Source of the DNA: Calditrichaceae bacterium
GTDB lineage: Bacteria; Calditrichota; Calditrichia; Calditrichales; JBFXGD01
Assembly (NCBI GenBank): GCA_050173015.1
Contig: JBFXLE010000018.1
Coordinates: 27,294 to 91,293 of the forward strand
Length of the DNA: 64,000 nt
Direction: 5' to 3'
Shown in pieces: positions 4,479-61,544 of the stretch. The translations under genes were made by a program, and so were the position numbers. The notes beneath the pieces are model-generated. The model did no database searches and was not told the DNA's origin. It saw only the letters and a program-made list of their open reading frames with translations. Position 1 is the stretch's first letter, and each line of letters opens with the position of its first letter.

Positions 4479-4524
4479 ATTAAATTTTGTAGCATATTTC
4501 TTAAAAATTCATATCCATGAGTAT

Positions 4525-4842: not shown

Positions 4843-5079
4843 CCACACGTCCTCCATAAGACAAAAAGCAGTTAAATTGACTTAATTACTTAATTAATAT
4901 AAACATACAACTTCAAAATATGCAAATCAAGAACTAAGTTTAATAATCTATAATAGATATTAGACTTATGCGACTTTTTTAAAGGTTAAAGAACATTTAG
5001 TAAACCGATCAATTATATTATTCGGCCTCTTATTGGCAATCTTTATCAAATTATTTATAAGTGGAATATTCACCTGCAT

Positions 5080-7713: not shown

Positions 7714-7727
7714 TTAATTCTGATTGA

Positions 7728-25338: not shown

Positions 25339-26166
25339 ATGAAAAATAAAATATTAGAAATCATTGTGACATTAAAGTCGAAATTCAAATCGTACTATAC
25401 TGAATTAAAAAAAGATAATCGTACACTCCGGAAATTCCTGATCAGTCTCTTTTCACCCGTGATTATCGTTATACTACTCTTCCTTATCTTGCCGCTGACA
25501 TGCGCAAATAATGAATCCCTTTCTCCGGAAACCTCTGGTGAAGATACAAAATCTGTTAAAAAGTCCGAAGCAAATTTGGGAGAATTGGAAACAGAGGAAC
25601 ATTTCTGGAAGAATCGTATTAAGCTGGCAAAGGATGATTCAATTTATCTGGTGATTAATCTCAGGGACAGCCTGGCGATTCTCGAAATAAAAGGCGTACC
25701 GCTTAGAGAAAGCAGGATTATCACATATGACAAAAGCAGCCTTTTGGCCGCCGGTAACAGATTCATTCATGTAGAATCCGCTTATACGCTTCAGAATGAC
25801 TGGGCGACGGTCACAAAAGCTCCTATAAAAGTGAAAATAGCCCCTAAGGACACCATTGAAGCCGGAAAAGCTGAGCAGCAACAGATTTACAATGAGGAGA
25901 GTGATGTCAGTTATACGCTGCTTTTTGATCATGATATGAGAGTCGAAATCAGACAATCCGATGAATCCTTTATTCACAAACGACTGCATTTTATGTATTA
26001 CCATTTGAAATCCGTATATTTTCAATTAAGCGGGGATTTCAAAGAATTCTCGCGTTTAAGGCCGCCCAAAACCCAATTATGGCTTGAATTGGATCTCGCG
26101 AAGGATGACGCGAAAGCTATTTATCGCGCCCTGCCTGTGAACGCGAAAATGCTGATATATTTATAG
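25339..26166 (+). CDS. Membrane-anchored hypothetical protein, possibly a degenerate YkuD-like fold
   Basis: TM plus coiled coil; YLVINLRDSLAILEIKG resembles the first YkuD strands; C-terminus resembles the neighbour's but has no His/Cys motif. Confidence 0.6.
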   Translation: MKNKILEIIVTLKSKFKSYYTELKKDNRTLRKFLISLFSPVIIVILLFLILPLTCANNESLSPETSGEDTKSVKKSEANLGELETEEHFWKNRIKLAKDDSIYLVINLRDSLAILEIKGVPLRESRIITYDKSSLLAAGNRFIHVESAYTLQNDWATVTKAPIKVKIAPKDTIEAGKAEQQQIYNEESDVSYTLLFDHDMRVEIRQSDESFIHKRLHFMYYHLKSVYFQLSGDFKEFSRLRPPKTQLWLELDLAKDDAKAIYRALPVNAKMLIYL

Positions 26167-35152: not shown

Positions 35153-36735
35153 TATTCCCTATCTTTCTCCCTCCGGTTTTGTACGCGGAAACCCATTACC
35201 GGTTTAAATACTTTTTCAGCCTTCTCAAAAAACCGGAACCGGAAATTATCGCGGATGTCCCCCATCGGATACTGTCGGGTGGCCGACTCCCCATTCTTCT
35301 AATCATAAGGGATGCCCACCTTTACCCGGTCATTCTTGAACAAGCCGAAATCTTTATCGACAATATTAAGAAAGAAAGTTTTAAATTTTCAAAGCGGATC
35401 GATGCACCCTATTTTGAGTCCCTGCTCAAACTCGATGTCACGGACATAAAGCCGGGGCAGCATTCCATTGTCGTTAAAATTGAATATAAGATTAAAGGGA
35501 AAACAAAAATCTGCGTTAATGACAATCACCGCGGCACGACTCACGAACCATTCCCCTGCTATTTTTCAGCAGAAGCGCTGCCCAACTTTGATGGTTTCGC
35601 GCTTGGCGAACCTCACGCGCATACAAACTTCACCTCCGATCAGATCGAGTTCGGGGCATCGGTCCAAAACACGGCGGAAATGGCAAAAATTCTCGGGCTG
35701 CAATACTTCGCGGCGACTGATCATTCATACGATCTTGACGATATGCCCGATAATTATTTCATCAATGATCCCGAGCTTCGTAAATGGCATGATTTTAACC
35801 ATCAGGTTTCCCTGTATAATGACCAACAAGATGATTTTTGCGTCATCCCGGGTGAAGAAGTCAGCGTCCGGAACACGGATCAAAAGAATGTGCATCTTCT
35901 GGTTTACAATTCCGATACATTTTATCACGGAACGGGTGACAGCGGCGACCGCTGGCTAAATTACCGGTCCGAACACGACCTGAGTTCCATTTTGAATGAC
36001 CTTAACGGACAGACGGCGGCATTCGCGGCCCATCCAAAGGATCCCACACCGTTTTTGCAGAGTCTGCTTTTAAACCGCGGCGGATGGAATCATGCCGATG
36101 CCGTCCACAATAATCTGACCGGCGTTCAGATTATCAACGGGAGAACGGAAGAGATTACCAGGTCCGCTCTGACCTACTGGAAAGAACTGCTGCTTTCCGG
36201 TGTTAAAGTCTTCGCGCTGGCGGGAGACGACGCCCACGGTAATTTTGGCAGGTACCGGCAGATCGGTTTTCCGTTTGTCTCCATGCGTGAACACTATAGG
36301 CAGCTTTTCGGCGCCTGGCGTACCGGAATATTTCTCGGGAAAGAATCATTGAATGTGAGTAATCTCATCACCGGTTTACGCAGCGGAAACTACTTTATGA
36401 CCAACGGCCCGGCGATCCGGATCCAAATACGAGACGACAATAAGACCTATGAAATGGGTATGACCGCGGCAAGCGGATCGGAAGCGGTTATTCAGGTTAA
36501 ATCAGGAAGCGAGTATGGCGCGATCAGCCGGATCATGCTGTATCGCGGGATTATCGGCGATCAGGATGAAACACTATTGCTGGATCAGAACATAACCGAA
36601 TCAATATTTTCAGTATCAAAAAAGGTTTTATTACCCGATGATCAAAAATCGTATTATATCCGCGGCGAAACTGTCACAAAAAATACGCGCGGCGTATTTT
36701 ACGGATACACCAACCCGATTTGGATTCAGCATTGA
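35149..36735 (+). CDS. PHP-superfamily (CehA/McbA-like) metallohydrolase
   Basis: HAHT, TDHS, PGEEVS, HLL, AAHP, GDDAH motifs; TTG start overlaps the upstream stop. Confidence 0.8.
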   Translation: MIFPIFLPPVLYAETHYRFKYFFSLLKKPEPEIIADVPHRILSGGRLPILLIIRDAHLYPVILEQAEIFIDNIKKESFKFSKRIDAPYFESLLKLDVTDIKPGQHSIVVKIEYKIKGKTKICVNDNHRGTTHEPFPCYFSAEALPNFDGFALGEPHAHTNFTSDQIEFGASVQNTAEMAKILGLQYFAATDHSYDLDDMPDNYFINDPELRKWHDFNHQVSLYNDQQDDFCVIPGEEVSVRNTDQKNVHLLVYNSDTFYHGTGDSGDRWLNYRSEHDLSSILNDLNGQTAAFAAHPKDPTPFLQSLLLNRGGWNHADAVHNNLTGVQIINGRTEEITRSALTYWKELLLSGVKVFALAGDDAHGNFGRYRQIGFPFVSMREHYRQLFGAWRTGIFLGKESLNVSNLITGLRSGNYFMTNGPAIRIQIRDDNKTYEMGMTAASGSEAVIQVKSGSEYGAISRIMLYRGIIGDQDETLLLDQNITESIFSVSKKVLLPDDQKSYYIRGETVTKNTRGVFYGYTNPIWIQH

Positions 36736-41613: not shown

Positions 41614-41735
41614 TCCCAACGGTTTGTATGATAATCCCTGCCGATTGCGGGCTTTATACTTTTCAAGATACACGAACACACTTTATGTGTGCTACAAAGC
41701 CCCTGGATTTGCTGTTAACATAGCTATTATTGTTA
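41614..41735. other. Possible degenerate attC-like (gene-cassette) recombination site
   Basis: Intergenic element starting CCCAACGGTTTGTATG between two co-oriented AT-rich genes; reads GTTGGGA just upstream of the GIY-YIG gene on the minus strand; the opposite arm is not intact. Confidence 0.35.
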
Positions 41736-42803
41736 TTCAACATCAGTTATATACACCGTTCCTTTACCTTTCCCGACACTAGTTATCAGCCGCTCCTTTC
41801 TCATATATTGCAGATCCTTTTTTATGGTATTGATATTAATATTATCAAACCTTTTTGCCAAATCAGATATTTTCAATGGTTGATTTTTTATTAAATAATC
41901 CCTTATTTCTTTCTGTCTTTCATTCAAATATCCACCTTTTGACTTAAACACATCATATTTTTCGTCAAGTCGTTGAGTTAATTCACTCAATTTATCAAGA
42001 AAATACAATATCCATGTAGATATGTTTTCATTATTTTTATTTCTGTTTTTTTGCCCATCCATTAATGCCTGATAGTATTCTTTTTTAGTATTTTCTATCA
42101 GGTTTTCAAATGATACATATTGGATAAACCAATAACCGTTTTGCAGTAAAAGCAGGGTGATTAATAATCTGGATAATCGGCCATTTCCATCCTGGAACGG
42201 ATGAATTGATAAGAACTCGTAAATAAGATTTGCTACAATAATTAAAGGATGAATTTCTTTATTTTTTAATTGACGATTTGTCCAACTAATCAAATCGTTC
42301 ATTTCACTACTCACTAAATGAACTTCTGTTGTATTAAAAAGAACTTTTTGAATTCCATCAGGATAGTTTGCTACTACTTTGTTTGAAATTGATTTATACT
42401 CTCCACGATGTCTTGTATCTTTATCGCTATATCGTAATAAACTCTTATGTAATTGTTTTATATAATTTTCAGTTAATCTTATATTTTCATAGTTTTCATA
42501 AATTGTTTCCAATGTGTCATAATAACCAATGACTTCTTGTTCATCTCTTGTCTTTAATTTGGTTATTTTTATATTTTTCAGGAGTTCTTCTATTTCTTTG
42601 TTTGTAAGAGTTCCGCCTTCAATTCTTGTTGAAGAACCGATACTTTCGATTGTGGCAATTTTCCGTAATTCTTTTAGATATGTATTCTCTTGATTTTCAA
42701 TACTATTCCATTTGCCTTTATATAAGTCGATTTGAGAAATCAGGTTCAATATTTTCTGATTTGTTTGAAAATCATAGTTTAATTTATTTATATATTTATC
42801 CAT
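41733..42803 (-). CDS. Fic family protein (class II-like) with C-terminal winged HTH
   Basis: HPFQDGNGRLSR Fic motif; STRIEG inhibitory motif N-terminal to it; NINTIKKDL...GKGKGTVY wHTH. Confidence 0.92.
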   Translation of the reverse strand: MDKYINKLNYDFQTNQKILNLISQIDLYKGKWNSIENQENTYLKELRKIATIESIGSSTRIEGGTLTNKEIEELLKNIKITKLKTRDEQEVIGYYDTLETIYENYENIRLTENYIKQLHKSLLRYSDKDTRHRGEYKSISNKVVANYPDGIQKVLFNTTEVHLVSSEMNDLISWTNRQLKNKEIHPLIIVANLIYEFLSIHPFQDGNGRLSRLLITLLLLQNGYWFIQYVSFENLIENTKKEYYQALMDGQKNRNKNNENISTWILYFLDKLSELTQRLDEKYDVFKSKGGYLNERQKEIRDYLIKNQPLKISDLAKRFDNININTIKKDLQYMRKERLITSVGKGKGTVYITDVE

Positions 42804-46105: not shown

Positions 46106-47491
46106 ATGTTTAAGCGTTTAACAATTTTCATGCTGCTGATCACCGGTCTGGCTTTAACGATCGGATGCAGCGAAGACAGCAGCACATCCGTCACCCCGTC
46201 TCTTGACGCGACCGAATACACCGCGGTGGACACGCTGCGCATTACCGTTAAAGATCACGGAATGGGTACGGGAACGATGACCTGGACCAGCGACAAAGTA
46301 TGGATTCTGGACGGCTTTGTATTTGTCAATGACGGGCAGATTCTTACCATCGAACCGGGTACGGTAATCAAGGGCCGTTCCGGACAGGGAGCGAACGCCA
46401 GCGCCCTGGTTGTGGCCCGCGGCGGTAAAATTCTCGCGGAAGGAACACCAACCAGTCCGATTATTTTTACAGCCGAGTCGGATGATCTTTCCAATCCGTT
46501 AAATGTACGCGGCTTGTGGGGAGGACTAATTATACTGGGTAAAGCGGGCATCAACACCGCCGCCGGTGTGGGTCAGATTGAAGGAATTCCTGAAGATGAA
46601 GCCCGCGGAGCTTACGGCGGGGATGATGATTCGGATAATTCGGGAATATTGAAGTATGTCTCTGTTCGTTATGGCGGTACGGAAATCGGTTTGGCCAATG
46701 AAATTAACGGGGTAACCTTTGGAGCGGTCGGTTCCGGCACCACCGTTGAACATGTGGAAGTGGTGTTTAATAAGGACGACGGCTTTGAATGGTTTGGCGG
46801 AACCGTCAATTGTAAATATCTGGTCGGCGCCTATAACGGAGACGATACCTTTGACTATGACGAAGGTTTCCGCGGCAAGGGACAGTTCTGGCTTTCTCTC
46901 CAGGCGGCCGATGCCGGTGACCGCGCCGGAGAGCATGACGGCGGTACCGATCCTGAAGACGGACTCCCCTATGCCATTCCGGTCATCTCCAACGTAACCT
47001 ATATCGGTTCAGGCGCGGGCAGTTTCAATTCAGATAACATGACCTTTAAGATCCGCGACAATGCCGGAGCGAGATATTACAACAGCATTTTTTATGATTT
47101 TGCCAGTATGGCGATTGACATCGAAGATTTGAGCAGCGGTGAAGACAGCCGCGCCCGTCTGGATGCCGGCGATATCGACTTCAGAAACAATATCTGGTAC
47201 GCGTTCGGCAACGGTAATACCGCGGCGGAAATGTGCAAACATGACTATGAGCAGATTTTGTTCAGCGACGCCAACAGAAAAAACCGGATCATCGATCCGC
47301 GGTTGGCCAACAGCAACCGGATGAGCGGATTTGATCCAAGACCTGCCGCGGCTGAAGCCACAGGGGATGTATATTCTCTTACAGATGATTTCTATACAAC
47401 GGCTGATTATCAGGGCGCGTTTGATCCCAACGCGGAATTATGGATTAAAGGATGGACTTATTTAAGTCAGTTTGGATTCTCAGCCGAGTAG
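46106..47491 (+). CDS. Acidic Gly/Asp-rich surface lipoprotein (probable beta-helix) paired with the TonB receptor
   Basis: RBS AGGAGG; lipobox TIGC; LTIEPGTVIKG, WGGLIILG, YGGDDDSDNSG, DDGFEWFGG repeats. Confidence 0.8.
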   Translation: MFKRLTIFMLLITGLALTIGCSEDSSTSVTPSLDATEYTAVDTLRITVKDHGMGTGTMTWTSDKVWILDGFVFVNDGQILTIEPGTVIKGRSGQGANASALVVARGGKILAEGTPTSPIIFTAESDDLSNPLNVRGLWGGLIILGKAGINTAAGVGQIEGIPEDEARGAYGGDDDSDNSGILKYVSVRYGGTEIGLANEINGVTFGAVGSGTTVEHVEVVFNKDDGFEWFGGTVNCKYLVGAYNGDDTFDYDEGFRGKGQFWLSLQAADAGDRAGEHDGGTDPEDGLPYAIPVISNVTYIGSGAGSFNSDNMTFKIRDNAGARYYNSIFYDFASMAIDIEDLSSGEDSRARLDAGDIDFRNNIWYAFGNGNTAAEMCKHDYEQILFSDANRKNRIIDPRLANSNRMSGFDPRPAAAEATGDVYSLTDDFYTTADYQGAFDPNAELWIKGWTYLSQFGFSAE

Positions 47492-49461: not shown

Positions 49462-50139
49462 CTAATCGCGGTCAATTCTAAGTTTTTCCGGACTGTGCCG
49501 GGCGATAATACCTTCAACCATGTAGATAACATCTTCGGCGATATTGGTCGCTGAATCTCCGATACGCTCCAGATATCTGGAAACAGACAAAAACTGCGTG
49601 TACACAAAAATATTCTCCGGTTTCGCCAGAACAGCATCACGAACCACATGAAAAACATGTTCATGCATCTGATCAATCTGATCATCGGCGGCGCAAACCT
49701 GCCGTCCCTGCTTAGAATCAAGATTGATAAGAGCATCCAGGCTTGACCGCAGCATGCTTTTTGCTATTTCCCCCATTTCCCTGAAGTTAAATTCGAAATC
49801 AATGGCGGGATAATCATGAAGATCGACCGCGCGCTGAGCGATATTCGATGCAAGATCTCCCACTCTTTCCAATTCGCTGTTTATTTTGAGCACGGCGACC
49901 ACATAGCGCAAATCGATAGCGACCGGTTGATGCAAAGCCAGAATTTTAAGACATTCCTCTTCGACTTCGACTTCCATTTCGTCAATTTTTGTATCATTTT
50001 TGATGATATCTTTGGCCAGTTCAATATCATCACTGTCAAGCGCCAGAACCGCGTTCTGAACGGTCTCTTCAACCATGGCGCCAAGCGTGAGAATTTTTTT
50101 CTTTAAATTCTCGATGGCCTTATGTAAATGGATTGTCAT
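49462..50139 (-). CDS. phoU: Phosphate signalling protein PhoU
   Basis: QPVAIDLR, ELERVGD, LERIGDSATNIAE. Confidence 0.96.
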   Translation of the reverse strand: MTIHLHKAIENLKKKILTLGAMVEETVQNAVLALDSDDIELAKDIIKNDTKIDEMEVEVEEECLKILALHQPVAIDLRYVVAVLKINSELERVGDLASNIAQRAVDLHDYPAIDFEFNFREMGEIAKSMLRSSLDALINLDSKQGRQVCAADDQIDQMHEHVFHVVRDAVLAKPENIFVYTQFLSVSRYLERIGDSATNIAEDVIYMVEGIIARHSPEKLRIDRD

Positions 50140-50156
50140 AACACTACTCCTTTAAA

Positions 50157-50975
50157 TCAACCAAATCGACCGGTAATATAATTTTCTGTTTGTTTTTCTT
50201 TCGGATTTGTGAACAACTGATCGGTCACTCCGTATTCCACGATATGCCCTTCATAAAAAAACGCGGTAAAATCAGAGATACGCGCCGCCTGCTGCATATT
50301 GTGGGTTACGATGGCGATGGTATAATTTTCCCTTAGGGCCAATATCAGTTCTTCAATTTTCGCGGTCGCCACGGGATCGATGGCCGATGTCGGTTCATCC
50401 ATCAAAAGAACTTCCGGTTCGACCGCTATCGCTCTCGCTATACAGAGGCGCTGTTGTTGTCCTCCTGAAAGCGCCGTTCCGGGGCTGCTCAGCTTATCCT
50501 TGACCTCTTTCCATAAGGCCGCCTGATGAAGCGCCCCTTCCACTTTTGAGGCGATCTCCCCTTTACTCAGTTTATAATGCAAACGTAAACCGTAAGCCAC
50601 GTTATCAAATACGGTCATCGGAAACGGAGTCGGTTTCTGAAAAATCATTCCCACGCGTTTACGCAGATCGATCAGATCCTGATCTTCCGACAAAATATTT
50701 ACACCGTCTAGCAGAACTTCACCTTCGGCGCGCTGATCCCTGTACAGCTCATATATCCTGTTGTAAACACGTAAATGAGTCGATTTACCGCAGCCGGAGG
50801 GTCCAATCACCGCCGTCACTTTACCCGGTTTTATCTCAATGGAGTTGTTAAAAAGCGCCTGATGTTTTCCGTAGAAAAAATTCAGATTTTTAACGGAGAT
50901 ATGGCCCCTGATTTTTTCCGGTACGGTCTCCGTCACTTTTGACATTTGTCTTACAGTATCGGCTATCTGGTTCAA
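50157..50975 (-). CDS. pstB: Phosphate ABC transporter ATPase
   Basis: [37 protein letters not shown]. Confidence 0.97.
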
Positions 50976-50976
50976 A

Positions 50977-51822
50977 CTATTGTTTCCTTTCCTTTAAAGC
51001 GAACCTCGTCAGTAAGGTCACAAACAAAACCGCGAGGGTGATCAGTAAAGACGCTCCCCAGGCCATCTGCTGCCAATCGGGATAAGGCGACATGGCGTAA
51101 TTAAATATCGTGACCGTCAAATTCGCGGTGGAATCGTTTAGCATCCCCGGCCAGTATGGACTGTTTAAAGCGGTGAATAAAAGCGGCGCGGTCTCTCCGC
51201 TGACACGGGCAATCGCTAACAGCACACCGGTGATCATACCTGTTTTGGCTCCGCGAAATACAATCGTCAATGTAACTTTCCATCTTGGTGAACCGAGCGC
51301 CAGAGCGGATTCCCGCAGCGCGTTCGGTACCATTTGCAGCATATCTTCGGTTGTTCTCGCCACCACGGGGAGCATAATAATCGCCAACGCGACGCCTCCG
51401 GAATACCCGGAAAAATGTCCCACCGGCACAACCAAGATGGTGTAAACGAAAACGCCTATAATAATTGACGGTGTACCCATCAGAATATTGGAAAAAAATC
51501 TCACCCATTCCGAAAACTTTGACTGGTACCCAAATTCACTCAGATAAATACCCGCTAATAGTCCAAATGGAACTCCAAGAATGGTGGCCAGGAAGGTGAT
51601 CAACAATGTTCCGATCATCGCGTTGGCCAATCCGCCGCCTTCCATTCCGGGCGGTGTCGGCAATTCGGTAAAAAACGATAGATTGAGCGCGCTGACGCCC
51701 CTGATCATAATCTCGTAGATAATCCAAATGAGGATAAACAAGCCAAAAATCGCTGAAATTCCGGACAGAATGCTGACAAGGGCATTCTTAAATTTCCTGA
51801 AACTGTGGGAGCGTCCGTTCAC
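50977..51822 (-). CDS. pstA: Phosphate ABC transporter permease
   Basis: [31 protein letters not shown]; probable GTG start overlapping the pstC stop. Confidence 0.95.
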
Positions 51823-52766
51823 TGTACCCCCATGGATTTTTTGACTTTCCGCAGCCATAACTGAGAAACCACCTGAATGATAAATGTGATCACGAAAAGT
51901 ACGAGTCCCAGTTGAATCAAAGAACTCATGTACATCGGTTCCGAAGCTTCGGCAAATTCATTTGCCAGCGTGGCGGTGATACTGTTGGCCGGCGCGAACA
52001 GGGATGGCGATATATGATGACTGTTACCGATAACAAAGGTGACCGCCATGGTCTCACCGATGGCTCTTCCGAGGCCCAGGAAGGTCGCGCCGATGATCCC
52101 CTGAATTCCATACCTGATGGTCACCTTTTTTGTCACTTCCCAGGTCGTCGATCCCATCCCGTATGACGACTCCTTTACAACCGCGGGAACCATGATAAAC
52201 ACATCCCTTACCACGGAACTTATAAACGGCAGAATCATAATGGCCAGGATAATCCCCGCGGTAAACATCCCGATTCCTATCGGAGGGCCTTCCAGAAATA
52301 TATTATTCCCGAAAACCGTCTTGAGAGCAGGATGAATATATTTCGAAATAAAGGGCGCGAATACAAACAGTCCCCACATTCCGTATATGATACTGGGTAT
52401 GGCAGCGAGCAATTCAATGGCGGCCCCGAAAAACTTGCTGACCGCGGGGTGAGCCAGTTCGACAAGAAAAAGAGCGATGGCGATGCTCAACGGTACGGCA
52501 ATAATCATGGCGATCAGTGTTGAGACAATTGTTCCGTAAATACTGCTGGCGGCCCCGAATACACTTTTAACAGGATCCCAGACATTGGTGTACAGAAAAC
52601 CCGCGCCGAATTTTTGAATGGATGGCCAGGAGTTAACAAGGAGCTGCAAAAATATGGCCGCCATGATCAGCAAAATAAACGCCGCGCCGATGATGGTAAT
52701 GGCCTTAAAAATGGCATCCGACCTGTTTTGAGTGCTTCGTTCCTGAAAAAGTTTGCTAAATTCCAT
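51819..52766 (-). CDS. pstC: Phosphate ABC transporter permease
   Basis: WDPV, ELLAAIPSIIYGMWG, GRAIGETMAV, ANEFAEA. Confidence 0.96.
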   Translation of the reverse strand: MEFSKLFQERSTQNRSDAIFKAITIIGAAFILLIMAAIFLQLLVNSWPSIQKFGAGFLYTNVWDPVKSVFGAASSIYGTIVSTLIAMIIAVPLSIAIALFLVELAHPAVSKFFGAAIELLAAIPSIIYGMWGLFVFAPFISKYIHPALKTVFGNNIFLEGPPIGIGMFTAGIILAIMILPFISSVVRDVFIMVPAVVKESSYGMGSTTWEVTKKVTIRYGIQGIIGATFLGLGRAIGETMAVTFVIGNSHHISPSLFAPANSITATLANEFAEASEPMYMSSLIQLGLVLFVITFIIQVVSQLWLRKVKKSMGVQ

Positions 52767-52846
52767 TATTTCCTGTCATTATTTAAAAAGGAAAGAGGGC
52801 GTATCAAACGCCTCTCTTCTGATCAATTCACTTATTCCGCCGGCTG

Positions 52847-53926
52847 TTACTGCCAGACACTATTTCCTTCGGATTTAATTTCATTCTTCCATGTTTCCTC
52901 GACCAGTGATATCACATTCTCCGGTATCGGCACATAGTGCAGGTTCACCGCGAGTCCCTGACCATGGCGGTAACTCCATTCAAAGAATTCGAGCACCCTT
53001 TTCGCGGTCTGTGGGCTGCTTTGTTCTTTGTGCATGAGAATAAACGACGCTCCTGTGATGGGCCAGGAGGTTTCTCCGGGCTGATCGGTTAGAACCAGGT
53101 AATATCCGGGCGCGTTCCGCCAATCGGCATTTGCCGCGGCCGCCTGAAAGGATTCAATGGTTGGAGCGACATACTTTCCCGATTTGTTTTGAAGAAGAAC
53201 ATAATTCATTTTATTCTGTAACGCGTAGGCGTACTCAACGTATCCAATGGCACCGTCTGTTTTTTTGACAAAAGCGGCCACACCTTCATTGCCTTTTCCG
53301 GCAAGACCGGCGGCATCAGGCCATGCGGGAGCTTTCCCGAATCCGACTTTCTCTTCCCATTCTTTCGATACTTTTGCCAGATAATTTGTAAAAATCCATG
53401 TGGTACCGGAACCATCCGCCCGGCGCACGGTGGTTATCGCCTTATCCGGCAGTGTCAAATCCGGATTATTCTGCATAATTTGAGGATCATTCCAATTTTT
53501 AATTTTCCCAAGATAAATATCCGCCAGATTCTGAGCGGTAACTTTTAGAGCTCCTTCAGCGATTCCCGGAACATTGATCACCGGAACAACACCGCCGATG
53601 ACCATCGGAAACTGTATCAAGCCTCCTTCATTAAGTTCATCGACCTGTAACGGCGCGTCAGACGCCCCAAAATCAACGGTATTGGCTTTTATTTGCGCGA
53701 TACCGCCACCGGAACCGATGGACTGATAATTGAGTCTGGCGCCATATAATTTTTCGTATTTATAGGCCCACTGTGAATAGATGGGATAAGGAAATGACGC
53801 GCCCGCTCCGTTAATAACAGCGGTTTCCGCTTTTTCTTCAGATGTTTTGGATGTGCAGTTTGTCAGTGAAAACGACATAAACACCAATATAAGCAAAGCT
53901 GATGTAAGGCTTAAAATTTTCTTCAT
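52847..53926 (-). CDS. pstS: Phosphate ABC transporter substrate-binding lipoprotein
   Basis: GAGASFPYP, YQSIGSGGG, DFGASD, RADGSGTT, GKGNEGV. Confidence 0.97.
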   Translation of the reverse strand: MKKILSLTSALLILVFMSFSLTNCTSKTSEEKAETAVINGAGASFPYPIYSQWAYKYEKLYGARLNYQSIGSGGGIAQIKANTVDFGASDAPLQVDELNEGGLIQFPMVIGGVVPVINVPGIAEGALKVTAQNLADIYLGKIKNWNDPQIMQNNPDLTLPDKAITTVRRADGSGTTWIFTNYLAKVSKEWEEKVGFGKAPAWPDAAGLAGKGNEGVAAFVKKTDGAIGYVEYAYALQNKMNYVLLQNKSGKYVAPTIESFQAAAANADWRNAPGYYLVLTDQPGETSWPITGASFILMHKEQSSPQTAKRVLEFFEWSYRHGQGLAVNLHYVPIPENVISLVEETWKNEIKSEGNSVWQ

Positions 53927-54136: not shown

Positions 54137-55450
54137 TCACAGCGCTTCTTTCATTTCTCCCCCGAAACGGACCCCTATCTGTTTCATCAGCTTAAAGGGG
54201 GGCTCGCCCCCGGCGAAAATAAATACATAGGAATTAGCAAGCTCATCTTCTTTGCCGCCATCTTTTAGAATGACAGTTGATTCCTGAATACTGACAATTT
54301 CGGAGTTAAATTTAACATTGATTTTCCCGCTCTCTGTCATTTGCTGAAGTCTTTCTTCATTCCGCTTTTTTATCCTGAAAAATTTATCTTTTCTATAGGA
54401 TAACGTGACTGTGTTGCCTTCCTGGCTGGCCAATCCGATTGCCGCCTCGATCGCGCTGTCACCTCCGCCTACCACAATCAGGTTTTCGTTGGTATAGGCT
54501 TCCGCGTCGATTAATTTATACATTACCTTTGGAAGATTCTCCCCGGGGATATTTAATTTTCGTGGTGTGCCTCTTCGGCCGAGGGCAAGTATCACATAAC
54601 GGGAATGATAACTGTTTTCTATTGTTTTTATTATAAAACCATTACCGTTTTTTTCGATGTGTTCGAGTTTTTCTTTTGTATGAAGATTCAGATCGAATTT
54701 TGATTCGATTTCTTCCCAAATTTCCAGTAGCTCTTCTTTGGTATATTCAGGGTGTTTTAACCATCCGTACATGGGCAGTTCCACCGGTTTTGTCATCACT
54801 AATTTTTTACGGGGATAATGCAATATCGTCCCCCCCGCTCCCTGCTGATCGATGACCAGAAAGGATAAATTGTGCTTTTTGGCCGTCAGAGCCGCGCTCA
54901 GCCCGGCCGGTCCGGCGCCGACGATTATCAGGTCATGCATGGAATAGTCCGATCCGTGATGATCCATCTTTGAAGCAATGTGCTCGGCCACCTTTCGTCC
55001 CTGATTGATCGCGTTTCTTATCAAAGCCAGTCCGCCGAGTTCACCGGCGATATAGAGTCCTTCGATATTTGTTTCATTAAACTCCGTCATCACCGGGATG
55101 TCGTCACGGGATTTAATATCTCCCAGACCGACCTTGATAGCGCCCACCGGACAAGCTTCCTCACACAGACCATGACCAACACATTTCAGGCCGTTTATAA
55201 TCGTTGCCTTGCCGCTGACAATGCCAAGGACACTGCCCTCGGGACAGGCAGCGACACAGGATCCGCAGCCGATACATTTCCACTGGTCAATCTGGGGATA
55301 CTGAGCGACCGGTTTATCGGCCCCCAGGCGAACCGCTTCTTTTTTCCGGTATAAATCTTTCTTTTGTGTCTTCCTGAAACGGATATAGTACGGTAAAAAT
55401 ATTGCCAGACCTACGACCAGCGTCAGGGCGTATATTAAGATTGTTTCCAT
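54137..55450 (-). CDS. Membrane-anchored 2x[4Fe-4S] ferredoxin / FAD-NAD(P)H oxidoreductase (TrxB/YpdA-like fold)
   Basis: N-terminal TM; CIGCGSCVAACP and CVGHGLCEEACP; VGAGPAG; VVGGGDSA followed by SYRK. Confidence 0.85.
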   Translation of the reverse strand: METILIYALTLVVGLAIFLPYYIRFRKTQKKDLYRKKEAVRLGADKPVAQYPQIDQWKCIGCGSCVAACPEGSVLGIVSGKATIINGLKCVGHGLCEEACPVGAIKVGLGDIKSRDDIPVMTEFNETNIEGLYIAGELGGLALIRNAINQGRKVAEHIASKMDHHGSDYSMHDLIIVGAGPAGLSAALTAKKHNLSFLVIDQQGAGGTILHYPRKKLVMTKPVELPMYGWLKHPEYTKEELLEIWEEIESKFDLNLHTKEKLEHIEKNGNGFIIKTIENSYHSRYVILALGRRGTPRKLNIPGENLPKVMYKLIDAEAYTNENLIVVGGGDSAIEAAIGLASQEGNTVTLSYRKDKFFRIKKRNEERLQQMTESGKINVKFNSEIVSIQESTVILKDGGKEDELANSYVFIFAGGEPPFKLMKQIGVRFGGEMKEAL

Positions 55451-55505
55451 TTATTTGACTTCCTGAGATTGTCAAGTTGAAGACGATCGCTGTATGATAT
55501 CGATG

Positions 55506-57113
55506 TTAAAATCTAAAGCCGGCTTCGGCATTTACGCGATGGCCTCTTGTATCATCTCCCCAATCATATTCATACTGGGAAGATATAAAAAAATGTCTGG
55601 TTAATTCTATTTGTCCGTTGACTCTGAGCCATTGATTTAGGTAATTGCTGTTTGTCGCTTCCAGATTGTAAAAATAGTTCCCGTATGTGATGCCTGCAAT
55701 ATGTCCGGCGTTCATTGTCTTGCTAATCCTGATCGAAGGATTATATCCGCTTGTATAATAATTTGAAAAACCGGATAGATTTAGCTGAAGCAACATTCCG
55801 GAAAGAAAAAAATTCATCTTATTGAGTCCCGCTGAATACGAGTACGTATTCTCTGAATCATTTTCGCGGTTACGGATGCCGAATCCGGCGGATAACCGGT
55901 AATCATCCAAAAGTTTGATATGAATATTTGTTCTTATGCCCTGCCTGAAGGCATCATCAAAAAGGCTGTCCGCCATTGTGCGTAAATCGTAGGTATAATA
56001 ATTTTTGCGATTGTCATAGGATAATGAGGCATTCACCCCGTCGGAGAACCGGTACCGGCCTGATAGATATAAACCCGACAATGATAGATTTTCATTTGTC
56101 CGGTCCTTGCGCCAGTCGCGATTCAGATCAATTTCGGCGCTTTGATAGAATGACCATTTTTTCCCGGAAACATAATTATTCTGCAGGTAGAGAAATTCAC
56201 GGCTGACGGTGCTTCCATGATATTCCCCCGCCAGCGCCAGTGTCGATTCCAATCGCTTTGTGCTGTAATCTCCGGTAAGATACGTAAGATACCCGCCGTA
56301 TTTTTGGATGGATGTTTGAAAGTCTGAATACTGCCATTCGGGCTGGGTTCCCGCGAATACGCCGAGACTCAGATTTTTCAGCATATTGTACTGCAGCAAC
56401 AGCCCGTCAATATACCCCACACCGCTGAATTTATTTGATATGATTCGCCCTAATTTATAATTGATAACAGACGATTCATCATCGTATGAAAAAGACAGTT
56501 CATAAATCCGGTTGCGCCATTCTTCAGAGGGTACATGACTGTTGTAGCTTCGCTCCCTTTTATCATAACGGGTTCTGGTTTTTAGGATAAAATGATAGCT
56601 TTTACCCCAGAGTTGCCGCGCCTTCAAATTTACACGGAAAGTCGGTTGGCTGAAGTTCAGCCCGGCATCGGTTAAATCTTCAAAATGATACAACTGCATC
56701 GAGATGGTCCCGTGTACATTTGATCTGGAGCGTCTGCTGCTTTTGACGGGAAGTTGCGACAAGGCGCGCTGCCGGGATTTCAGGGTATCCTGAGCTGCTT
56801 CTGATATTTCGCCGCGGTCAGGCAAATGAACGATGTCTCCCGCTTTTACAGCGGAGGATGATTCAATAATCTTGCATGAAGATGAATGACCGGCCACAAA
56901 TACGATTTCCATTTCAGCGATGATTTTAGCTTGCCTGATCACGGACAGACGCATTCCGGCCGACAGGCCATCCGTTTCTCCGGCATCAATATATACATGA
57001 TCGGCGGACAGATATTTTACCTTCGCGGTCCGCTCTCCTGTCTGGGAAAATCCCATCCCAAATATCAGCAGGACGATAGTCATTAGTATATATTTAACGC
57101 TTCTGTTGTTCAT
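55506..57113 (-). CDS. Outer-membrane beta-barrel protein with a small N-terminal beta domain
   Basis: Signal peptide; VYIDAG..DGL..G N-domain; many aromatic alternating strands; C-terminal AEAGFRF. Confidence 0.75.
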   Translation of the reverse strand: MNNRSVKYILMTIVLLIFGMGFSQTGERTAKVKYLSADHVYIDAGETDGLSAGMRLSVIRQAKIIAEMEIVFVAGHSSSCKIIESSSAVKAGDIVHLPDRGEISEAAQDTLKSRQRALSQLPVKSSRRSRSNVHGTISMQLYHFEDLTDAGLNFSQPTFRVNLKARQLWGKSYHFILKTRTRYDKRERSYNSHVPSEEWRNRIYELSFSYDDESSVINYKLGRIISNKFSGVGYIDGLLLQYNMLKNLSLGVFAGTQPEWQYSDFQTSIQKYGGYLTYLTGDYSTKRLESTLALAGEYHGSTVSREFLYLQNNYVSGKKWSFYQSAEIDLNRDWRKDRTNENLSLSGLYLSGRYRFSDGVNASLSYDNRKNYYTYDLRTMADSLFDDAFRQGIRTNIHIKLLDDYRLSAGFGIRNRENDSENTYSYSAGLNKMNFFLSGMLLQLNLSGFSNYYTSGYNPSIRISKTMNAGHIAGITYGNYFYNLEATNSNYLNQWLRVNGQIELTRHFFISSQYEYDWGDDTRGHRVNAEAGFRF

Positions 57114-57122
57114 ATACTTTCC

Positions 57123-58592
57123 TTACTCCGCGCGGCCTGTCGGATGACAGTTGTAACAGGCGTTACTTTCATAGGCATAATCCGTGACTTCTTTGTGTTT
57201 ATCGTTCAGATCAGCCTGATTGCTGTGTTCATGACAGGTGATGCACTCAAAATGTGTGTAATCATTGGCATTAACATGACAATCCGCGCAAGTATTCCAT
57301 TCATTCTGATGTTTCCCGCTATAAATGGGGAAATACTGACCGTCATGATCCCAGTTTGCAGGCTGCCACGCGCTCATCGAATGACAATCTTCACAGGTTG
57401 AAGGAAATTGGGCCGCGGCATGATTGGGATCATTTGTATTGTTATAAGCGCTCTCATGACAAGGGAAGCAGTCTGTGGGCGTATTTGTATAACCGGTGGA
57501 ATGACATTCCGCGCAATTTACGCTCACATGCGCTCCCACTAATGGGAAATTCGTCTGATTATGATCAAAGGAAGAAGGCGTCCAGGCCGTTGTTGAATGG
57601 CAGACCAGGCAGTCATGATCAAAATTAGCGGCGACATGATCAGGATCTTTTACTCCATTAAAATCCGCTTGGTGACAGGAAAAACAGTCCGTGGGCAACA
57701 TAGAATACTGCCCGTCGATGTGACAATCAACGCATGCTAATGACGCATGGGCGCCGGTCAAAGGGAATCCGCTTGAAGCATGATCAAAATACGCCGGAAT
57801 CCACGCGGACTCCGTATGGCAAATGCTGCACTCGGTGGAAAACTGTCCCTGAGTATGATCCGGCTCTTTTGCCGCATAGTAATCCGATTCATGACAGGCA
57901 AAACAGGTATTATTGATTCCACTGAACTGGGTCTGATGACAACTGTTACAATCAGCTCTAAGATGCGCGCCCCGCAGCGGGAATTCAGAAGTATGCTGAT
58001 AATTTGTCCGCTCCCATGAGGAGGAATTGAGCAAATGGCACTCTTCACACCGGTCATCAAACTGAGCTTTTCGATGATCCGGATTCAGGGTTGCCTTGAA
58101 AAGTTCACCGTGACAATTTTCGCATTCAATCGGGGTATTGGAAAATTCGTTACGCTGTTCCGTAAAATGGCAAGCCCTGCAATCCACGATGGAGTGAACG
58201 CCTACCAGCGGGAACCGGGTTTGATTGTGCTGCTGAAAAAGTTCCTGACGATTTTCCCACGACTGCGGGGAATGACAGTTCTCGCAATCGGATCCGAATT
58301 CGGCTTTATGGATATCCTGATGGCAATCGGCGCAGGCGTGACCGATATGCGCGAAAACAGGATTTTCATGACAACTTTCGCAATCGACGTACCGGTGCGC
58401 TCCGGTTAAGGGATATCCCGTTTGATTATGATCAAAATCCTTACCCGGATGAATATCAAACCAATCCGATGTGTTATGACAGGTTGTACAATCCAATTTG
58501 ATATCCCCATGAGGATTGCTCAAAGTCTCCTGACCGTAAACCCGCGGCAAAATCAGTAAACTCGCGATGGCTGTAATGATGAATGCTCTCAT
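57123..58592 (-). CDS. Multiheme c-type cytochrome, 19 CxxCH motifs
   Basis: Signal peptide; 19 CxxCH counted by eye; repeated triheme unit FDH..T.FPL.GAH. Confidence 0.93.
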   Translation of the reverse strand: MRAFIITAIASLLILPRVYGQETLSNPHGDIKLDCTTCHNTSDWFDIHPGKDFDHNQTGYPLTGAHRYVDCESCHENPVFAHIGHACADCHQDIHKAEFGSDCENCHSPQSWENRQELFQQHNQTRFPLVGVHSIVDCRACHFTEQRNEFSNTPIECENCHGELFKATLNPDHRKAQFDDRCEECHLLNSSSWERTNYQHTSEFPLRGAHLRADCNSCHQTQFSGINNTCFACHESDYYAAKEPDHTQGQFSTECSICHTESAWIPAYFDHASSGFPLTGAHASLACVDCHIDGQYSMLPTDCFSCHQADFNGVKDPDHVAANFDHDCLVCHSTTAWTPSSFDHNQTNFPLVGAHVSVNCAECHSTGYTNTPTDCFPCHESAYNNTNDPNHAAAQFPSTCEDCHSMSAWQPANWDHDGQYFPIYSGKHQNEWNTCADCHVNANDYTHFECITCHEHSNQADLNDKHKEVTDYAYESNACYNCHPTGRAE

Positions 58593-58600
58593 AGGCACCT

Positions 58601-60280
58601 TCAGTTATTACTAATGATATTGGCGTGACAGGATTTGCATTCTGTCGACATTGGTTTGTAAACAGTGAATGTAGTCTCATTTTTGACTGCATTTTTATGG
58701 CATTGTTCGCATCTGACCCTTTGATGCGCCCCATCCAGTTTGAACACAGAATCCCGGTTATGATCAAATTTTTCCGCCAGCCAGTCTTTTGAAGTATGAC
58801 AGCGTTCGCAGCGGATTCCGTCCGGCGCCCCGGCTTCCTGAAATTGTCCCAGATGAATATCCGTATGACAGTCTCTACAAAGCGGAGTCATCCCCAAAAA
58901 CTGAAGCCGCTCCAGCTCCGTACCTTTCCGGATGGGCCGGTGGCAGTCCCCGCATTTCGCGGAAAGGTGACGTCCTTCAAGCGGAAATTTGGTGGCCTGA
59001 TGATCAAAACTAACCCGAGTCCAGCTATCGACGCTGTGACAATGTTCACACCCGTCCATATTGGTAAGAGATGATTTTTTACCAAGATAATTATCAACCT
59101 CGCCCTTGTGAGGATCTTTGTGACATTCTACGCATCTGTCTGATTGATAGGTGAAACGGACGTTCCCTTTTCCGTTTGACAGGACGATTTTTTCATGACA
59201 TGCCACACATGGCACCGCCAAATGGCTGCCCGTCAACGGGTAATCGGTTAAGCGATGCTGTTCGATGGTAAATGATGAAGGGCTGAAACCGTTGACCGTA
59301 TGACATTCTTCACATGCCCCCTTCATTACTCTGCTGGCAAAATTGCCGTTATGGTAATCACTGTGACAGTCCGTACAATTTTGAAAACGGCTAATTCGGA
59401 CCGACCGGCCCGGCGGATGACATTGGCTGCACTGTACATTCGCGTGTTTTCCGAGAAGAGGATAGGCGGTTTTACCGTGATCAAATCCGGTGAGTTCTGT
59501 GCTTTTCCACCCGGCTGTATTATGACATTGTGTGCAGTTCTGCCCGAATTTGTTCCGGTGAATATCCGCATGACAGTCCGTGCAGGTATTAAACGTCAAT
59601 GGGGCGAACTTTAGAAAATCAGGATCATCCGGATACTTGTTATCTGTGATCGTCACGTGACATTTATCGCAGGCAGTCTGCGCGTGGAGACCGGTTAATT
59701 TAAATTTTGTTTTATTGTGATCAAACTGTGTCGCGGGTTTCCACGATTCCATTCCGTGGCATTTAACGCATGATTCGCCGATCTGCCCGCGGTGCTCGTC
59801 ATGGTGACAGCTTACACAATCCCGGTTCAATCCAAGAAAGGTCTGTTTGAGATCCTTACCTTTGCTCTTATATTTTTCAGGGGTTTGAATATAACTCTCC
59901 CTGTGACACTTTTCGCAGCTTAAAGTTGCATGCTTCCCTTCAAGCGGGTAACCGGTTAATGAATGATCGAACTTATCTTTTCCGTCTTTCCAGTAAATCA
60001 GATCGTAATCCCGTCCCTGGTGCTCAATATGGCAATTTTCACATTTTCGGTAATCTTTCCCGGCATGGAGTCCTTTTCCCTCGGAAATTCTTTCCTTCAA
60101 CAATACATGACAATTAAGACAATAATCACCGGAGAGCTGTTGACCTATTTCATGACATTGGGTGCAATTCATCACCCCTTCAAGATGGGCATGCGATTTA
60201 TGCAGATCTCCCGGGGATAGCTGAGCGAAAACCGATACCGCAAATAGGAGCGGAAACCAAAAATATAAGATTCGATTCAT
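58601..60280 (-). CDS. Multiheme c-type cytochrome, 20 CxxCH motifs
   Basis: Signal peptide (VFA/QLSPG); 20 CxxCH counted by eye; repeated triheme units. Confidence 0.93.
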   Translation of the reverse strand: MNRILYFWFPLLFAVSVFAQLSPGDLHKSHAHLEGVMNCTQCHEIGQQLSGDYCLNCHVLLKERISEGKGLHAGKDYRKCENCHIEHQGRDYDLIYWKDGKDKFDHSLTGYPLEGKHATLSCEKCHRESYIQTPEKYKSKGKDLKQTFLGLNRDCVSCHHDEHRGQIGESCVKCHGMESWKPATQFDHNKTKFKLTGLHAQTACDKCHVTITDNKYPDDPDFLKFAPLTFNTCTDCHADIHRNKFGQNCTQCHNTAGWKSTELTGFDHGKTAYPLLGKHANVQCSQCHPPGRSVRISRFQNCTDCHSDYHNGNFASRVMKGACEECHTVNGFSPSSFTIEQHRLTDYPLTGSHLAVPCVACHEKIVLSNGKGNVRFTYQSDRCVECHKDPHKGEVDNYLGKKSSLTNMDGCEHCHSVDSWTRVSFDHQATKFPLEGRHLSAKCGDCHRPIRKGTELERLQFLGMTPLCRDCHTDIHLGQFQEAGAPDGIRCERCHTSKDWLAEKFDHNRDSVFKLDGAHQRVRCEQCHKNAVKNETTFTVYKPMSTECKSCHANIISNN

Positions 60281-60318
60281 AGATTGCCTGTTTTTTATAC
60301 TTTTATTTTATTCAGAAA

Positions 60319-61239
60319 TCAGAAGATCCATCGATAGCCGAGGAGAACCGTTACAATGATATGGATAATCATAATCAGATACATGATGATAGCGAATGGT
60401 TTATGAAACACATGCCAGTGGTGGAACAATTTATGTGTGCTGCTCCAAAGTTTCAGACGATGTCTGATCATGGCTTTCTGCCGGGCAGCTTTTAATATGG
60501 GATTTAGCTGATTACCGGGGATGTTGAATTTTTTGCGCACTGCGCGCTTGATAAAAATTGAGCGGACTGACCGCGCAATATCGCCGGTTATCATGGAAAA
60601 CAGTGTCCCGATTGCCGTTTTATGTGATTTTTCTCTGCCGATGATCAACGTTTCAATCTCGCTGAGAGCGTCATCTTCCAGCCAGAATTCATTTCTGAGC
60701 CTTTCGGTCATCTGCCGGTCCATTTCTTCGGCTTCGCTTAGCGTAAGCTCATGTCCTTTGATATTTCTCGGAATTTGCAAATACAGATAACGACCGACAA
60801 TGCCGCTCAGTGATACCGCGATCATGGACCAAAAACTGACGGCCACGAGACCGTTCAGCTTAAATGTGGTATGCAGGATAATAAACAGGGGCCCCATTAA
60901 TCCAAAATAGATATGGATGTCCAGCCAGCGGCTTAGTGAACCCCACTTTGAAAATGCCCTGAATCGTTTTCGAACCGAATACAGCAGCATTAAAATCATC
61001 ATGGATGAACCCAGGATACCGAAACCGTGCCCCAGCAATCCGCCCGGCTTCAGAGTACGGTAGTCCGCATGACGCGGCCTGTCGGCATATGACAACAAAT
61101 AATAATTTAATCCGTCCATTAAATAATAAATAACCACCGCAAAGGTTGTGATGTAAAGAAACGCGAGAAATATTCTAAAGGCTTTGCCCTGCTGCTGAGT
61201 TATATTTTTCCTGGTCTGAATTGTCATTATCCTGCTCAT
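60319..61239 (-). CDS. His-rich integral membrane protein (possible heme-b, ferric-reductase-like TM subunit)
   Basis: About 5 TM segments; GHGFG, YSVRKR, WLDIHIY, ILHT, WHVFHKP, IIHI. Confidence 0.75.
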   Translation of the reverse strand: MSRIMTIQTRKNITQQQGKAFRIFLAFLYITTFAVVIYYLMDGLNYYLLSYADRPRHADYRTLKPGGLLGHGFGILGSSMMILMLLYSVRKRFRAFSKWGSLSRWLDIHIYFGLMGPLFIILHTTFKLNGLVAVSFWSMIAVSLSGIVGRYLYLQIPRNIKGHELTLSEAEEMDRQMTERLRNEFWLEDDALSEIETLIIGREKSHKTAIGTLFSMITGDIARSVRSIFIKRAVRKKFNIPGNQLNPILKAARQKAMIRHRLKLWSSTHKLFHHWHVFHKPFAIIMYLIMIIHIIVTVLLGYRWIF

Positions 61240-61544
61240 CTATTTGAATACAGTTTCCGTATTTTGATTGCAACAACCGTGCTAAGAACAAAAATTAATA
61301 ATCAGGTGAACAATGTTATTCGTTTATCCCCTACCGGTTAATAGAATATATATAGATTTGATAATTCATACAAATGCGCTACAAAAAAAATCGATCAAAG
61401 ACCGTTATTGGATTTAAACAATAATTCCCCCGGTTCATACAAATGCTTAAAAATCGGGATTACCTTAAAAGTGAAAAAAAATTACTCACATTTACAAAAA
61501 AACTCACGGATCATGAGTGATCCTTATCTGCCGGAATTTTGTTT

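Follow-up and report, generated by a model that had tools for sequence, protein, structure and literature searches.

A five-gene cluster of Calditrichota and other bacteria as a candidate NAD(P)H-fed porin-cytochrome conduit across the cell envelope

To our knowledge, the known routes by which diderm bacteria pass electrons to extracellular acceptors (Mtr, Pcc/Ext) start at the quinone pool. Here we describe a cluster of five genes, g1 to g5, that lies at positions 54137 to 61239 of a 64,000-nucleotide stretch, hereafter the window, of the genome of a Calditrichaceae bacterium (GenBank assembly GCA_050173015.1, contig JBFXLE010000018.1, positions 27,294 to 91,293). From its comparative sequence analysis we consider it probable, with a likelihood of roughly 60%, that the five genes are one conserved operon for an envelope-spanning electron conduit that is fed by NAD(P)H and runs outward. 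The closest described system is PCC3 of Proteobacteria, which the PCC3 sections of He et al. (2017; PMC5566968) present as a porin, an extracellular cytochrome (median 34 hemes), a periplasmic cytochrome (median 21 hemes) and an inner membrane protein (IMP). According to the same sections, the periplasmic cytochrome has about 21 (21-27) heme sites, and the IMP is a protein of about 300 residues and five helices, of which helix 4 bears SGXXG and helices 3 and 5 each bear WX3HX13H; it was likened to the ferric reductase domain and modeled as quinone-linked, and the role suggested for the whole system is Fe(II) oxidation (PMC5566968). The supplement of that paper that lists the carriers is headed “Proteobacterial class” and, in its accessible part, includes no Emticicia, Caldithrix, Acidobacteria or Ignavibacteria. 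Surveys of the Gallionellaceae (PMC9900912; bioRxiv 10.1101/2025.02.27.639646) likewise treat PCC3, in the passages that concern it, as a set of four genes that is functionally untested. In a second class, PCC4 subgroup II, an iron-sulfur (Fe-S) gene stands beside the IMP gene, and in one genome, according to the relevant section, both were annotated together as a single gene (PMC5566968).

The cluster of the window runs from g1 to g5 in one orientation, with intergenic gaps of 38, 2, 9 and 55 bp, and is composed as follows:

60319..61239, minus strand: g1, a 306-residue inner membrane protein, predicted to carry two b hemes (AlphaFold2, AF2, model and conserved motifs)
58601..60280, minus strand: g2, a 559-residue exported 20-heme cytochrome c, the proposed periplasm-spanning wire (CxxCH count and Pfam)
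57123..58598, minus strand: g3, a 491-residue exported 19-heme cytochrome c, the minimal form of a length-variable cytochrome (CxxCH count)
55506..57113, minus strand: g4, a 535-residue outer membrane barrel protein (AF2 model)
54137..55450, minus strand: g5, a 437-residue membrane-anchored Fe-S flavoprotein that binds flavin adenine dinucleotide (FAD), the proposed cytoplasmic electron input (Pfam and motifs)

The original prediction, which had been made from the letters of the window, read the cluster as five co-oriented genes with gaps below 60 bp that encode two exported cytochromes with 39 CxxCH motifs in total, a barrel ending in F, a His-rich polytopic membrane protein and a ferredoxin-flavoprotein anchored by a transmembrane helix, and our analysis bears out this description gene by gene (20 + 19 CxxCH motifs; further details are given below with each protein).

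How does this cluster compare with PCC3? The g1-g2-g3-g4 core fits the PCC3 type, an assignment that was made by anatomy and motifs and in which the PCC3 proteins were compared by their description. Both have a barrel, a conserved cytochrome of predicted periplasmic location (20 hemes here versus about 21) and a second cytochrome of variable heme count, and g1 shows the published IMP signature exactly, having 306 residues, five helices, SGxxG and two WX3HX13H motifs. Both also have few residues per heme, 28 in g2 and 26 in g3, as against about 33 for the lowest ratio that the PCC3 sections quote for an MtrA homolog (PMC5566968). The differences lie in the gene content and in the carriers: PCC3, as these sources describe it, consists of four genes without a flavoprotein and is confined to Proteobacteria, whereas the present cluster includes g5 as a fifth, conserved gene and occurs in Calditrichota, Zixibacteria, Ignavibacteria, Acidobacteriota and Bacteroidota. 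A literature search that also covered Emticicia, and outside of which most subscription journals fell, yielded no publication in which an Fe-S flavoprotein of the NAD(P)H type is connected with a PCC3-like cluster, and the accessible part of a paper on Zixibacteria does not mention the cluster. The suggestion that this could be an uncharacterized architecture for extracellular electron transfer (EET) consequently has to be narrowed: the four-gene core has already been named, as the predicted PCC3, and the new element is the flavoprotein input, g5, which is unreported in the literature searched.

Other described systems share single traits with the cluster. Like PCC4 subgroup II, as its section in the survey describes it, the cluster has an IMP with the same motif signature adjoining a gene for an Fe-S protein, whereas the cytochromes of PCC4 are three small periplasmic ones (4, 5 and 10 hemes), with no extracellular one among them, and its Fe-S gene is of the pfam13247 type rather than a ferredoxin-TrxR-like flavoprotein. 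With the NOX, FRE, bacterial NOX-like and MsrQ proteins the cluster shares a predicted path from cytoplasmic NAD(P)H through flavin and two bis-His b hemes across the membrane to an acceptor outside, and with the ferric reductase superfamily the His pairs of g1 (H109/H123 and H279/H293), spaced 13 residues apart on two parallel helices. It differs from them in that the dehydrogenase is of the TrxR/YpdA type with two Fe-S clusters and not an FNR-type domain, that g1 does not reach the Pfam threshold and contributes five helices, to which g5 adds one, and that the acceptor would be a multiheme wire and not O2 or Fe(III) directly. The design, putative for our cluster, of a barrel with a multiheme cytochrome passing through it is the trait in common with MtrCAB, MtoAB and PioAB, and there are weak domain-level matches to domains II/IV of MtrC/MtrF (37 and 31 bits). 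Nevertheless, g4 gave no match to MtrB/PioB-type barrels, the cluster is without a CymA-type quinol dehydrogenase, its cytochromes have 20 and 19 hemes and not 10, and the scores against TIGR03508, the DmsE/MtrA family, were 43.9 bits for g2 and 21.9 bits for g3, below the cut-off of 192.2. The barrel of MtrB has 26 strands and that of the g4 model 22. Finally, Pcc/Ext of Geobacter also encodes a barrel, a periplasmic and an outer cytochrome side by side, the two cytochromes of Pcc having 8 and 12 hemes, respectively, in the available text (PMC4245776), whereas here there are 20 and 19 hemes and no lipobox. Pcc receives its electrons from the quinone pool, through ImcH, CbcL or CbcBA, where our cluster has a proposed flavoprotein input. 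That the original prediction did not recognize the subunits as Mtr or Pcc types thus holds for Mtr by the thresholds that were not reached, and for Pcc/Ext as a judgment from anatomy, that is, from heme counts and the missing lipobox.

The membrane protein g1 contains 13 His and no Cys. Its AF2 model (predicted local distance difference test, pLDDT, 84.6) has five long helices, at residues 7-42, 68-90, 102-124, 129-155 and 265-301, and a helical insert at 167-263. In 27 orthologs H109, H123, H279, H293, W275 and S145-G146-x-x-G149 show no variation and W105 shows almost none, and these residues make up a WX3HX13H motif on each of helices 3 (W105-H109-H123) and 5 (W275-H279-H293) and the SGxxG motif on helix 4. 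The distribution of Lys and Arg assigns the N-terminus, the 89-104 loop and the 154-272 insert to the cytoplasmic side, and helices 3 and 5 should therefore run parallel; with two His 13 residues apart on each, the two helices have the geometry predicted for two stacked bis-His b hemes.

The flavoprotein g5 begins with its single hydrophobic segment (residues 1-25), which is followed by 8 Lys/Arg within the next 21 residues, and we infer that its domains are cytoplasmic. Its Pfam matches are Pyr_redox_3 (expectation value, E, 8.9e-51), Pyr_redox_2 and the Fer4 families or 4Fe-4S dicluster, and its nearest solved relative is YpdA/Bdr (7a7b, E 4.5e-31), although its score against the YpdA equivalog TIGR04018, 190.1 bits, is below the cut-off of 339.9. 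The invariant residues C59, C65, C69, C90, H93, C96, C100, G178/G180/G183 and G328-G329-G330-D331-S332-A333 coincide with two Fe-S cluster motifs and with the dinucleotide-binding motifs for FAD and NAD(P)H (G178-x-G180-x-x-G183 and G328-G329-G330-D331-S332-A333). All 7 Cys of the protein are inside the two cluster motifs, in the second of which the invariant H93 takes the place of the second Cys of a ferredoxin. There is no redox-active CxxC disulfide in the g5 sequence, and g5 is for this reason not a disulfide reductase of the TrxR kind. We also noted g5-like flavoproteins that are fused to long TPR regions (1035-1377 residues) or carry an inserted FHA domain (873 residues; P0295, P0296, P0309 and P0264).

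In other bacteria g5 and g1 are joined in a single chain. Searching for longer relatives of g1, we found P0241 (740 residues) and P0242 (752 residues); residues 9-438 of P0241 align to g5 (38% identity, E 6e-93) and residues 465-740 to residues 28-306 of g1 (31%, E 6e-35). A search with P0241 against 1.84 billion protein representatives gave 7432 matches at E up to 0.001, and among the best 150 of these there are 31 full-length g5-g1 fusions of 730-770 residues, whose cluster names carry no taxonomy. Independently, an Atlas structure search matched g1 to the membrane part of “ferredoxin-NADP reductase/4Fe-4S” clusters of 751-805 residues. In 18 aligned fusions the g1-type His are kept, three of them invariant and one in at least 90%, and the cluster cysteines are conserved. 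Separate genes tell the same story, as g1 adjoins g5 in locus L063 and on an Emticicia plasmid (see below), and one open reading frame (ORF) separates them in L058. The fusion alignment was further used to find 80 metagenome loci, with a g1-like gene in 41 and a g2-like gene in 37; both are present in 20 of the 29 that span 8 kb or more. In eight of the metagenome loci g5 and g1 are fused or adjacent on the same strand, and in five (L070-L073 and L131) the fused gene is directly followed by a g2-like cytochrome. Taken together, the fusions and the adjacency lend strong comparative support to a direct physical partnership of g5 and g1. The order of the fusions fits the predicted topology, in which the anchor helix of g5 precedes cytoplasmic domains and g1 enters the membrane from the cytoplasm, and the anchor could be a sixth helix beside the five of g1. 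By these comparisons the conserved core is g5 + g1 + g2, which in the family of the window is extended to the outer membrane by the putative conduit components g3 and g4.

A distant variant of this arrangement (L069) was seen on a plasmid of Methylophaga pinxianii (7007-10784), where a 612-residue 2Fe-2S protein, a 252-residue g1-like protein (25% identity, E 2e-19) and a 7-heme cytochrome are encoded with ccm and metal-resistance genes nearby. This divergent variant and the Emticicia plasmid were the only ones found when plasmids were searched with g1 by tblastn.

The two cytochromes are paralogs of about 30% identity with cytochrome c7/c3-type repeats (Pfam). Each has 44 His, which is enough for the bis-His ligation of every heme, and the N-termini of both, like that of g4, resemble signal peptides. 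Despite their kinship they differ in how they vary. Exactly 20 CxxCH motifs are present in 30 of the 32 ORFs of at least 500 residues that are orthologous to g2, and g2 stays with g1 and g5 also in loci without a detectable g4-like barrel. Because its heme count is nearly invariant and it is kept with g1 and g5 without the barrel, g2 suits the part of the periplasmic partner of the inner membrane module, as judged by gene content. In contrast, the 37 orthologs of g3 have 13-67 hemes in 414-1716 residues. These orthologs always lie on the barrel side of the gene order and have conserved modules at both ends, an N-terminal module (about residues 23-250) and a decaheme module (251-491, 55-65% identity) that is always at the extreme C-terminus, and it is the middle that expands. 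The g3 of the window and that of L024 are the minimal form without a middle; elsewhere, the expansion reaches from 0 to about 48 extra hemes. Conservation at both ends points to two specific docking partners or, alternatively, to head-to-tail contacts. No match to g3 was obtained in a sequence search of the PDB, and about 20 loci carry an additional paralog of 9-10 hemes and about 265 residues directly upstream of the barrel.

The AF2 model of g4, made from a 27-sequence alignment (pLDDT 83.3), consists of a small N-terminal beta domain (residues ~29-96) and a 22-strand barrel (132-534), which a disordered linker (101-127) connects, and the protein ends in F (...GFRF). We found no Pfam or NCBIfam family for g4 at E up to 0.1 and no match to its sequence in the PDB, and Foldseek retrieved only generic barrels with the model. 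VIA-align placed at the top 22-strand barrels of TonB-dependent transporters (5fok, Z 18.3, 350 residues aligned; Fiu, Cir and BtuB), with 18-strand Occ porins scoring level with them; the best 50 VIA rows did not include MtrB. The model thus describes a wide barrel, of the size class that in the transporters holds a plug of about 150 residues, and is compatible with the hosting of a heme wire. Structural look-alikes of g4 in the Atlas have other periplasmic domains at their N-terminus, AMIN in Acidobacteriota (833 residues) and SPOR in Pseudomonadota (687 residues). By analogy, these hint, as a lead only, that the N-terminal domain of g4 may anchor the barrel to peptidoglycan.

The synteny survey that had been proposed with the original prediction showed that the genes co-occur widely. 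Scanning one genome per species with the g4 alignment, we obtained 65 loci, and in 59 of them the sequence continues for 1500 bp or more past the barrel. Among these 59, g5 follows the barrel on the same strand at a distance of no more than 500 bp in 51 and is found elsewhere in the cluster in another three (L029, L058 and L063). In L029 a second g5-like ORF directly follows the barrel, and in L058 and L063 g5 is close to g1. For the upstream genes, the 28 loci with the full 8 kb contain g1 in 25 and g2 in 26, and in L058, one of the three without g1, g1 is just outside of the locus. All four markers (g1, g2, g4 and g5) are present in 23 of the 26 loci that could be assessed on both sides. The five-gene arrangement is not a product of chance, because it recurs in dozens of genomes.

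The majority of the records bear Calditrichota titles, and the others include Zixibacteria, KSB1, Ignavibacteria, Acidobacteriota (Holophagae, Vicinamibacteria, Acanthopleuribacteraceae and Ca. Acidoferrum) and Eisenbacteria; single bins are labeled otherwise. Calditrichaceae or Calditrichota names belong to the nearest relatives of the window's barrel, the name Caldithrix abyssi is attached to one barrel homolog among those listed, and the locus nearest to the window (L001) is 86% identical. Two bins labeled “Alphaproteobacteria” are doubtful because L058 encodes a type-IX-secretion sorting domain; this C-terminal domain belongs to a protein encoded between g1 and g5 (L058 7-1950 and L067). 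Within Calditrichota, 86 species genomes were compared: 51 have the barrel, 52 have g1, 49 have both, five have one alone and 32 have neither. The five genomes with only one of the two are 84-97% complete, and the three matches to g1 alone are near contig ends. A quick maximum-likelihood tree of 60 barrels, namely those of the window and of Emticicia and 58 locus ORFs that reach 500 residues (seven barrels that were truncated or shorter were excluded), groups them largely by phylum, requiring 8 changes of label as compared with a minimum of 6 and a shuffled mean of 15.5.

One carrier is in culture. Emticicia oligotrophica DSM 17448, an aerobic heterotroph that came from warm spring water, has the cluster on its plasmid pEMTOL02 (L068) in the order ccsA, g1 (39% identity), g5 (43%), a 23-heme g2-like cytochrome, a 40-heme g3-like cytochrome and the barrel (24%, E 9e-27), with annotations that are hypothetical or generic. 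The ccsA that precedes the cluster (893-8973) is a cytochrome c biogenesis gene of the CcsA type encoding 1028 residues. Further upstream, divergently, are genes for a c-type cytochrome, YceI, a DUF5777 barrel, a Rieske protein, a second barrel and a sigma factor.

If the five proteins act together, electrons would take the following path. FAD, bound in the cytoplasmic part of g5, would accept a hydride from NAD(P)H, and the electrons would pass to the two Fe-S clusters of g5, one with an invariant His replacing Cys, and on to the two bis-His b hemes stacked across the inner membrane in g1. From there they would enter the 20 c hemes of g2 in the periplasm and then the 19-heme g3, the C-terminal decaheme module of which would sit in or at the g4 barrel and reach the surface. 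The path would conserve no energy itself; it would be a quinone-independent sink for reducing equivalents, with Fe(III)/Mn(IV) minerals, humics or partner cells as possible acceptors, and would regenerate NAD(P)+ for a fermentative or organotrophic metabolism. In short, a bacterial NADPH-oxidase/ferric-reductase module would be joined to a porin-cytochrome wire. Our more specific proposal, to which we give slightly less than even odds, is that this is a quinone-independent “electron exhaust” in which a NOX-like g5-g1 module feeds a wire of about 39 hemes to the surface, and that g5 is also the missing cytoplasmic partner of the IMPs of proteobacterial PCC3 and PCC4. Thus, of the wiring from NAD(P)H to the surface that the original prediction had put forward, the g5-g1 link gains support from fusions and adjacency, and the electron flow, its direction, the surface exposure and the insertion into the barrel are still parts of a proposed scheme.

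Several observations weigh against an outward conduit that starts from NAD(P)H. The match of g1 to Pfam Ferric_reduct (PF01794) is a weak one (E 0.02), its 15.4 bits falling short of the cut-off of 28, Foldseek found no match to the g1 model in the PDB at E no higher than 0.001, and hence no solved heme-b membrane protein, and the wide VIA comparison returned coiled-coil-like rows only (Z up to 9), which is uninformative. NAD(P)H as the donor, and the nucleotide specificity, are suggested by motif analogy, and the direction, likely outward, by bioenergetic reasoning. The exposure of a cytochrome at the surface and its insertion into the g4 barrel are putative; g2 and g3 both lack a lipobox cysteine or lipoprotein signal, and g4 resembles plugged transporters and ordinary porins equally well. 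Five of the 59 loci (L021, L026, L037, L040 and L044) have the barrel without g5 nearby. Conversely, a g4-like barrel is present in only 1 of the 29 metagenome loci of at least 8 kb, and the g5-g1-g2 module is therefore not in itself an extracellular system. The accessible part of the genome paper of Caldithrix abyssi mentions neither this cluster nor iron reduction, and no RNA runs containing the stretch were listed in our search.

What else could the cluster be doing? Some of these observations would suit a function other than respiratory EET, namely a reductase driven by NAD(P)H whose substrates lie in the periplasm or near the surface (assimilatory ferric reduction, or detoxification of oxidants or metals). 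The many hemes would then be a capacitor, and g4 would be a porin for the substrates. We regard this as unlikely, although it is the alternative that survives best, since the g5-g1-g2 trio is common without a detectable g4-like barrel (20 versus 1 of the 29 long loci), the plasmid of E. oligotrophica is among the carriers, the structure comparison does not separate g4 from porins and transporters, and the eukaryotic FRE and NOX proteins serve iron uptake or oxidant production. It does not explain why the barrel and g1 occur together in 49 of the 54 Calditrichota genomes that have either, why g3 always adjoins the barrel with its conserved C-terminal module at the barrel-proximal end, or why g3 has up to 67 hemes, far beyond the need of such an enzyme.

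The conduit might, on the other hand, be fed from another source. If g1 were a cytochrome b linked to quinol or quinone, g5 would be an accessory for maintenance, regulation or alternative input and not the main source of electrons. The PCC3 sections of He et al. (2017; PMC5566968) model the IMP as exchanging electrons with the quinone pool, the proteobacterial PCC3 has, in the accounts available, four genes and no flavoprotein, and five of the 59 barrel loci are without an adjacent g5. Set against this are the 31 g5-g1 fusions among the best 150 matches and the strict co-occurrence and adjacency of the two genes. Even in the proteobacterial variant L069 the g1-related protein stands beside an Fe-S protein of cytoplasmic type, and in PCC4 subgroup II, as its section describes it, the Fe-S gene adjoins that of the IMP. 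No quinone-site motif was identified, though none was searched for. Weighing these points, we think that a quinone-linked g1 is improbable.

For a conduit that starts at NAD(P)H, outward flow is favored because the potential of NAD(P)H is about 0.3 V lower than that of typical Fe(III), humic or Mn acceptors, because the membrane potential helps electrons outward and opposes their inward movement, and because the cluster has no energy-coupling module. The original prediction had also allowed the reverse, with the same hardware taking electrons from Fe(II), minerals, cathodes or partner cells for g5 to reduce NAD(P)+ or another cytoplasmic acceptor, and we consider this very improbable on bioenergetic grounds: multiheme wires are reversible in principle, PCC3 was, in the passages on it, defined in Fe(II)-oxidizing Proteobacteria and proposed there as an oxidase route, and the accessible account of Sideroxydans sp. 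CL21 has the IMP gene of one PCC3 copy rising during iron oxidation, but Fe(II) couples at about 0 V should not reduce NAD(P)+ (about -0.32 V) without energy input and against the membrane potential, there is no coupling-ion or quinone module in the cluster, and the carriers include fermentative or organotrophic lineages such as Calditrichota.

Should the cluster prove to be an NAD(P)H-fed outward conduit, it would represent a different bioenergetic design, dissipative, quinone-independent and serving redox balance, by which fermentative or organotrophic bacteria of at least five phyla could, without needing a respiratory chain, dump reducing power on minerals, humics or partners. The uncharacterized IMPs of the PCC3/PCC4 type would gain a partner and a mechanism, and the finding would make Calditrichota, Zixibacteria, Ignavibacteria and Acidobacteriota candidates for mineral or humic reduction in sediments and soils. 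The question is open to experiment, as the cultured E. oligotrophica DSM 17448 carries the cluster on a plasmid.

The genome that contains the window has 4.34 Mb in 54 contigs and an estimated completeness of 97.5%, and g1, g4 and g5 are single-copy in it. Promoter and terminator consensus scans of the locus were uninformative except for a single hairpin upstream of g1, which is a possible upstream boundary of the operon:

61502..61518, minus strand: terminator-like hairpin between the upstream TPR gene and g1 (consensus scan only)

We considered this TPR gene and the downstream pstS as further members of the cluster and dropped both, as they are common only to the nearest relative (L001). The remainder of the window carries housekeeping genes (mutS, methylmalonyl-CoA mutase, dnaK, htrA and pstSCAB-phoU), including a complete pstS-pstC-pstA-pstB-phoU phosphate-uptake operon directly downstream of g5 (49462-53926, minus strand), which likewise has its counterpart in L001 alone and does not belong to the cluster. 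Three of its ORFs, at 35149-36735, 46106-47491 and 25339-26166 on the plus strand (528, 461 and 275 residues), matched no Pfam family at E of 1e-8 or lower, the first of them lying between genes for a histidine kinase and an Omp85-family protein, and an ordinary Fic/DOC-domain protein is encoded at 41733-42803 on the minus strand. In line with an electron conduit, the genome as a whole is rich in multiheme cytochromes, with 27 ORFs of at least 4 CxxCH motifs, and further multiheme clusters were noted at C15:34172-42349 (19+11+12+9 hemes), C12:82935-90423 (13+5+4+11) and C4:108119-111540 (10+11).

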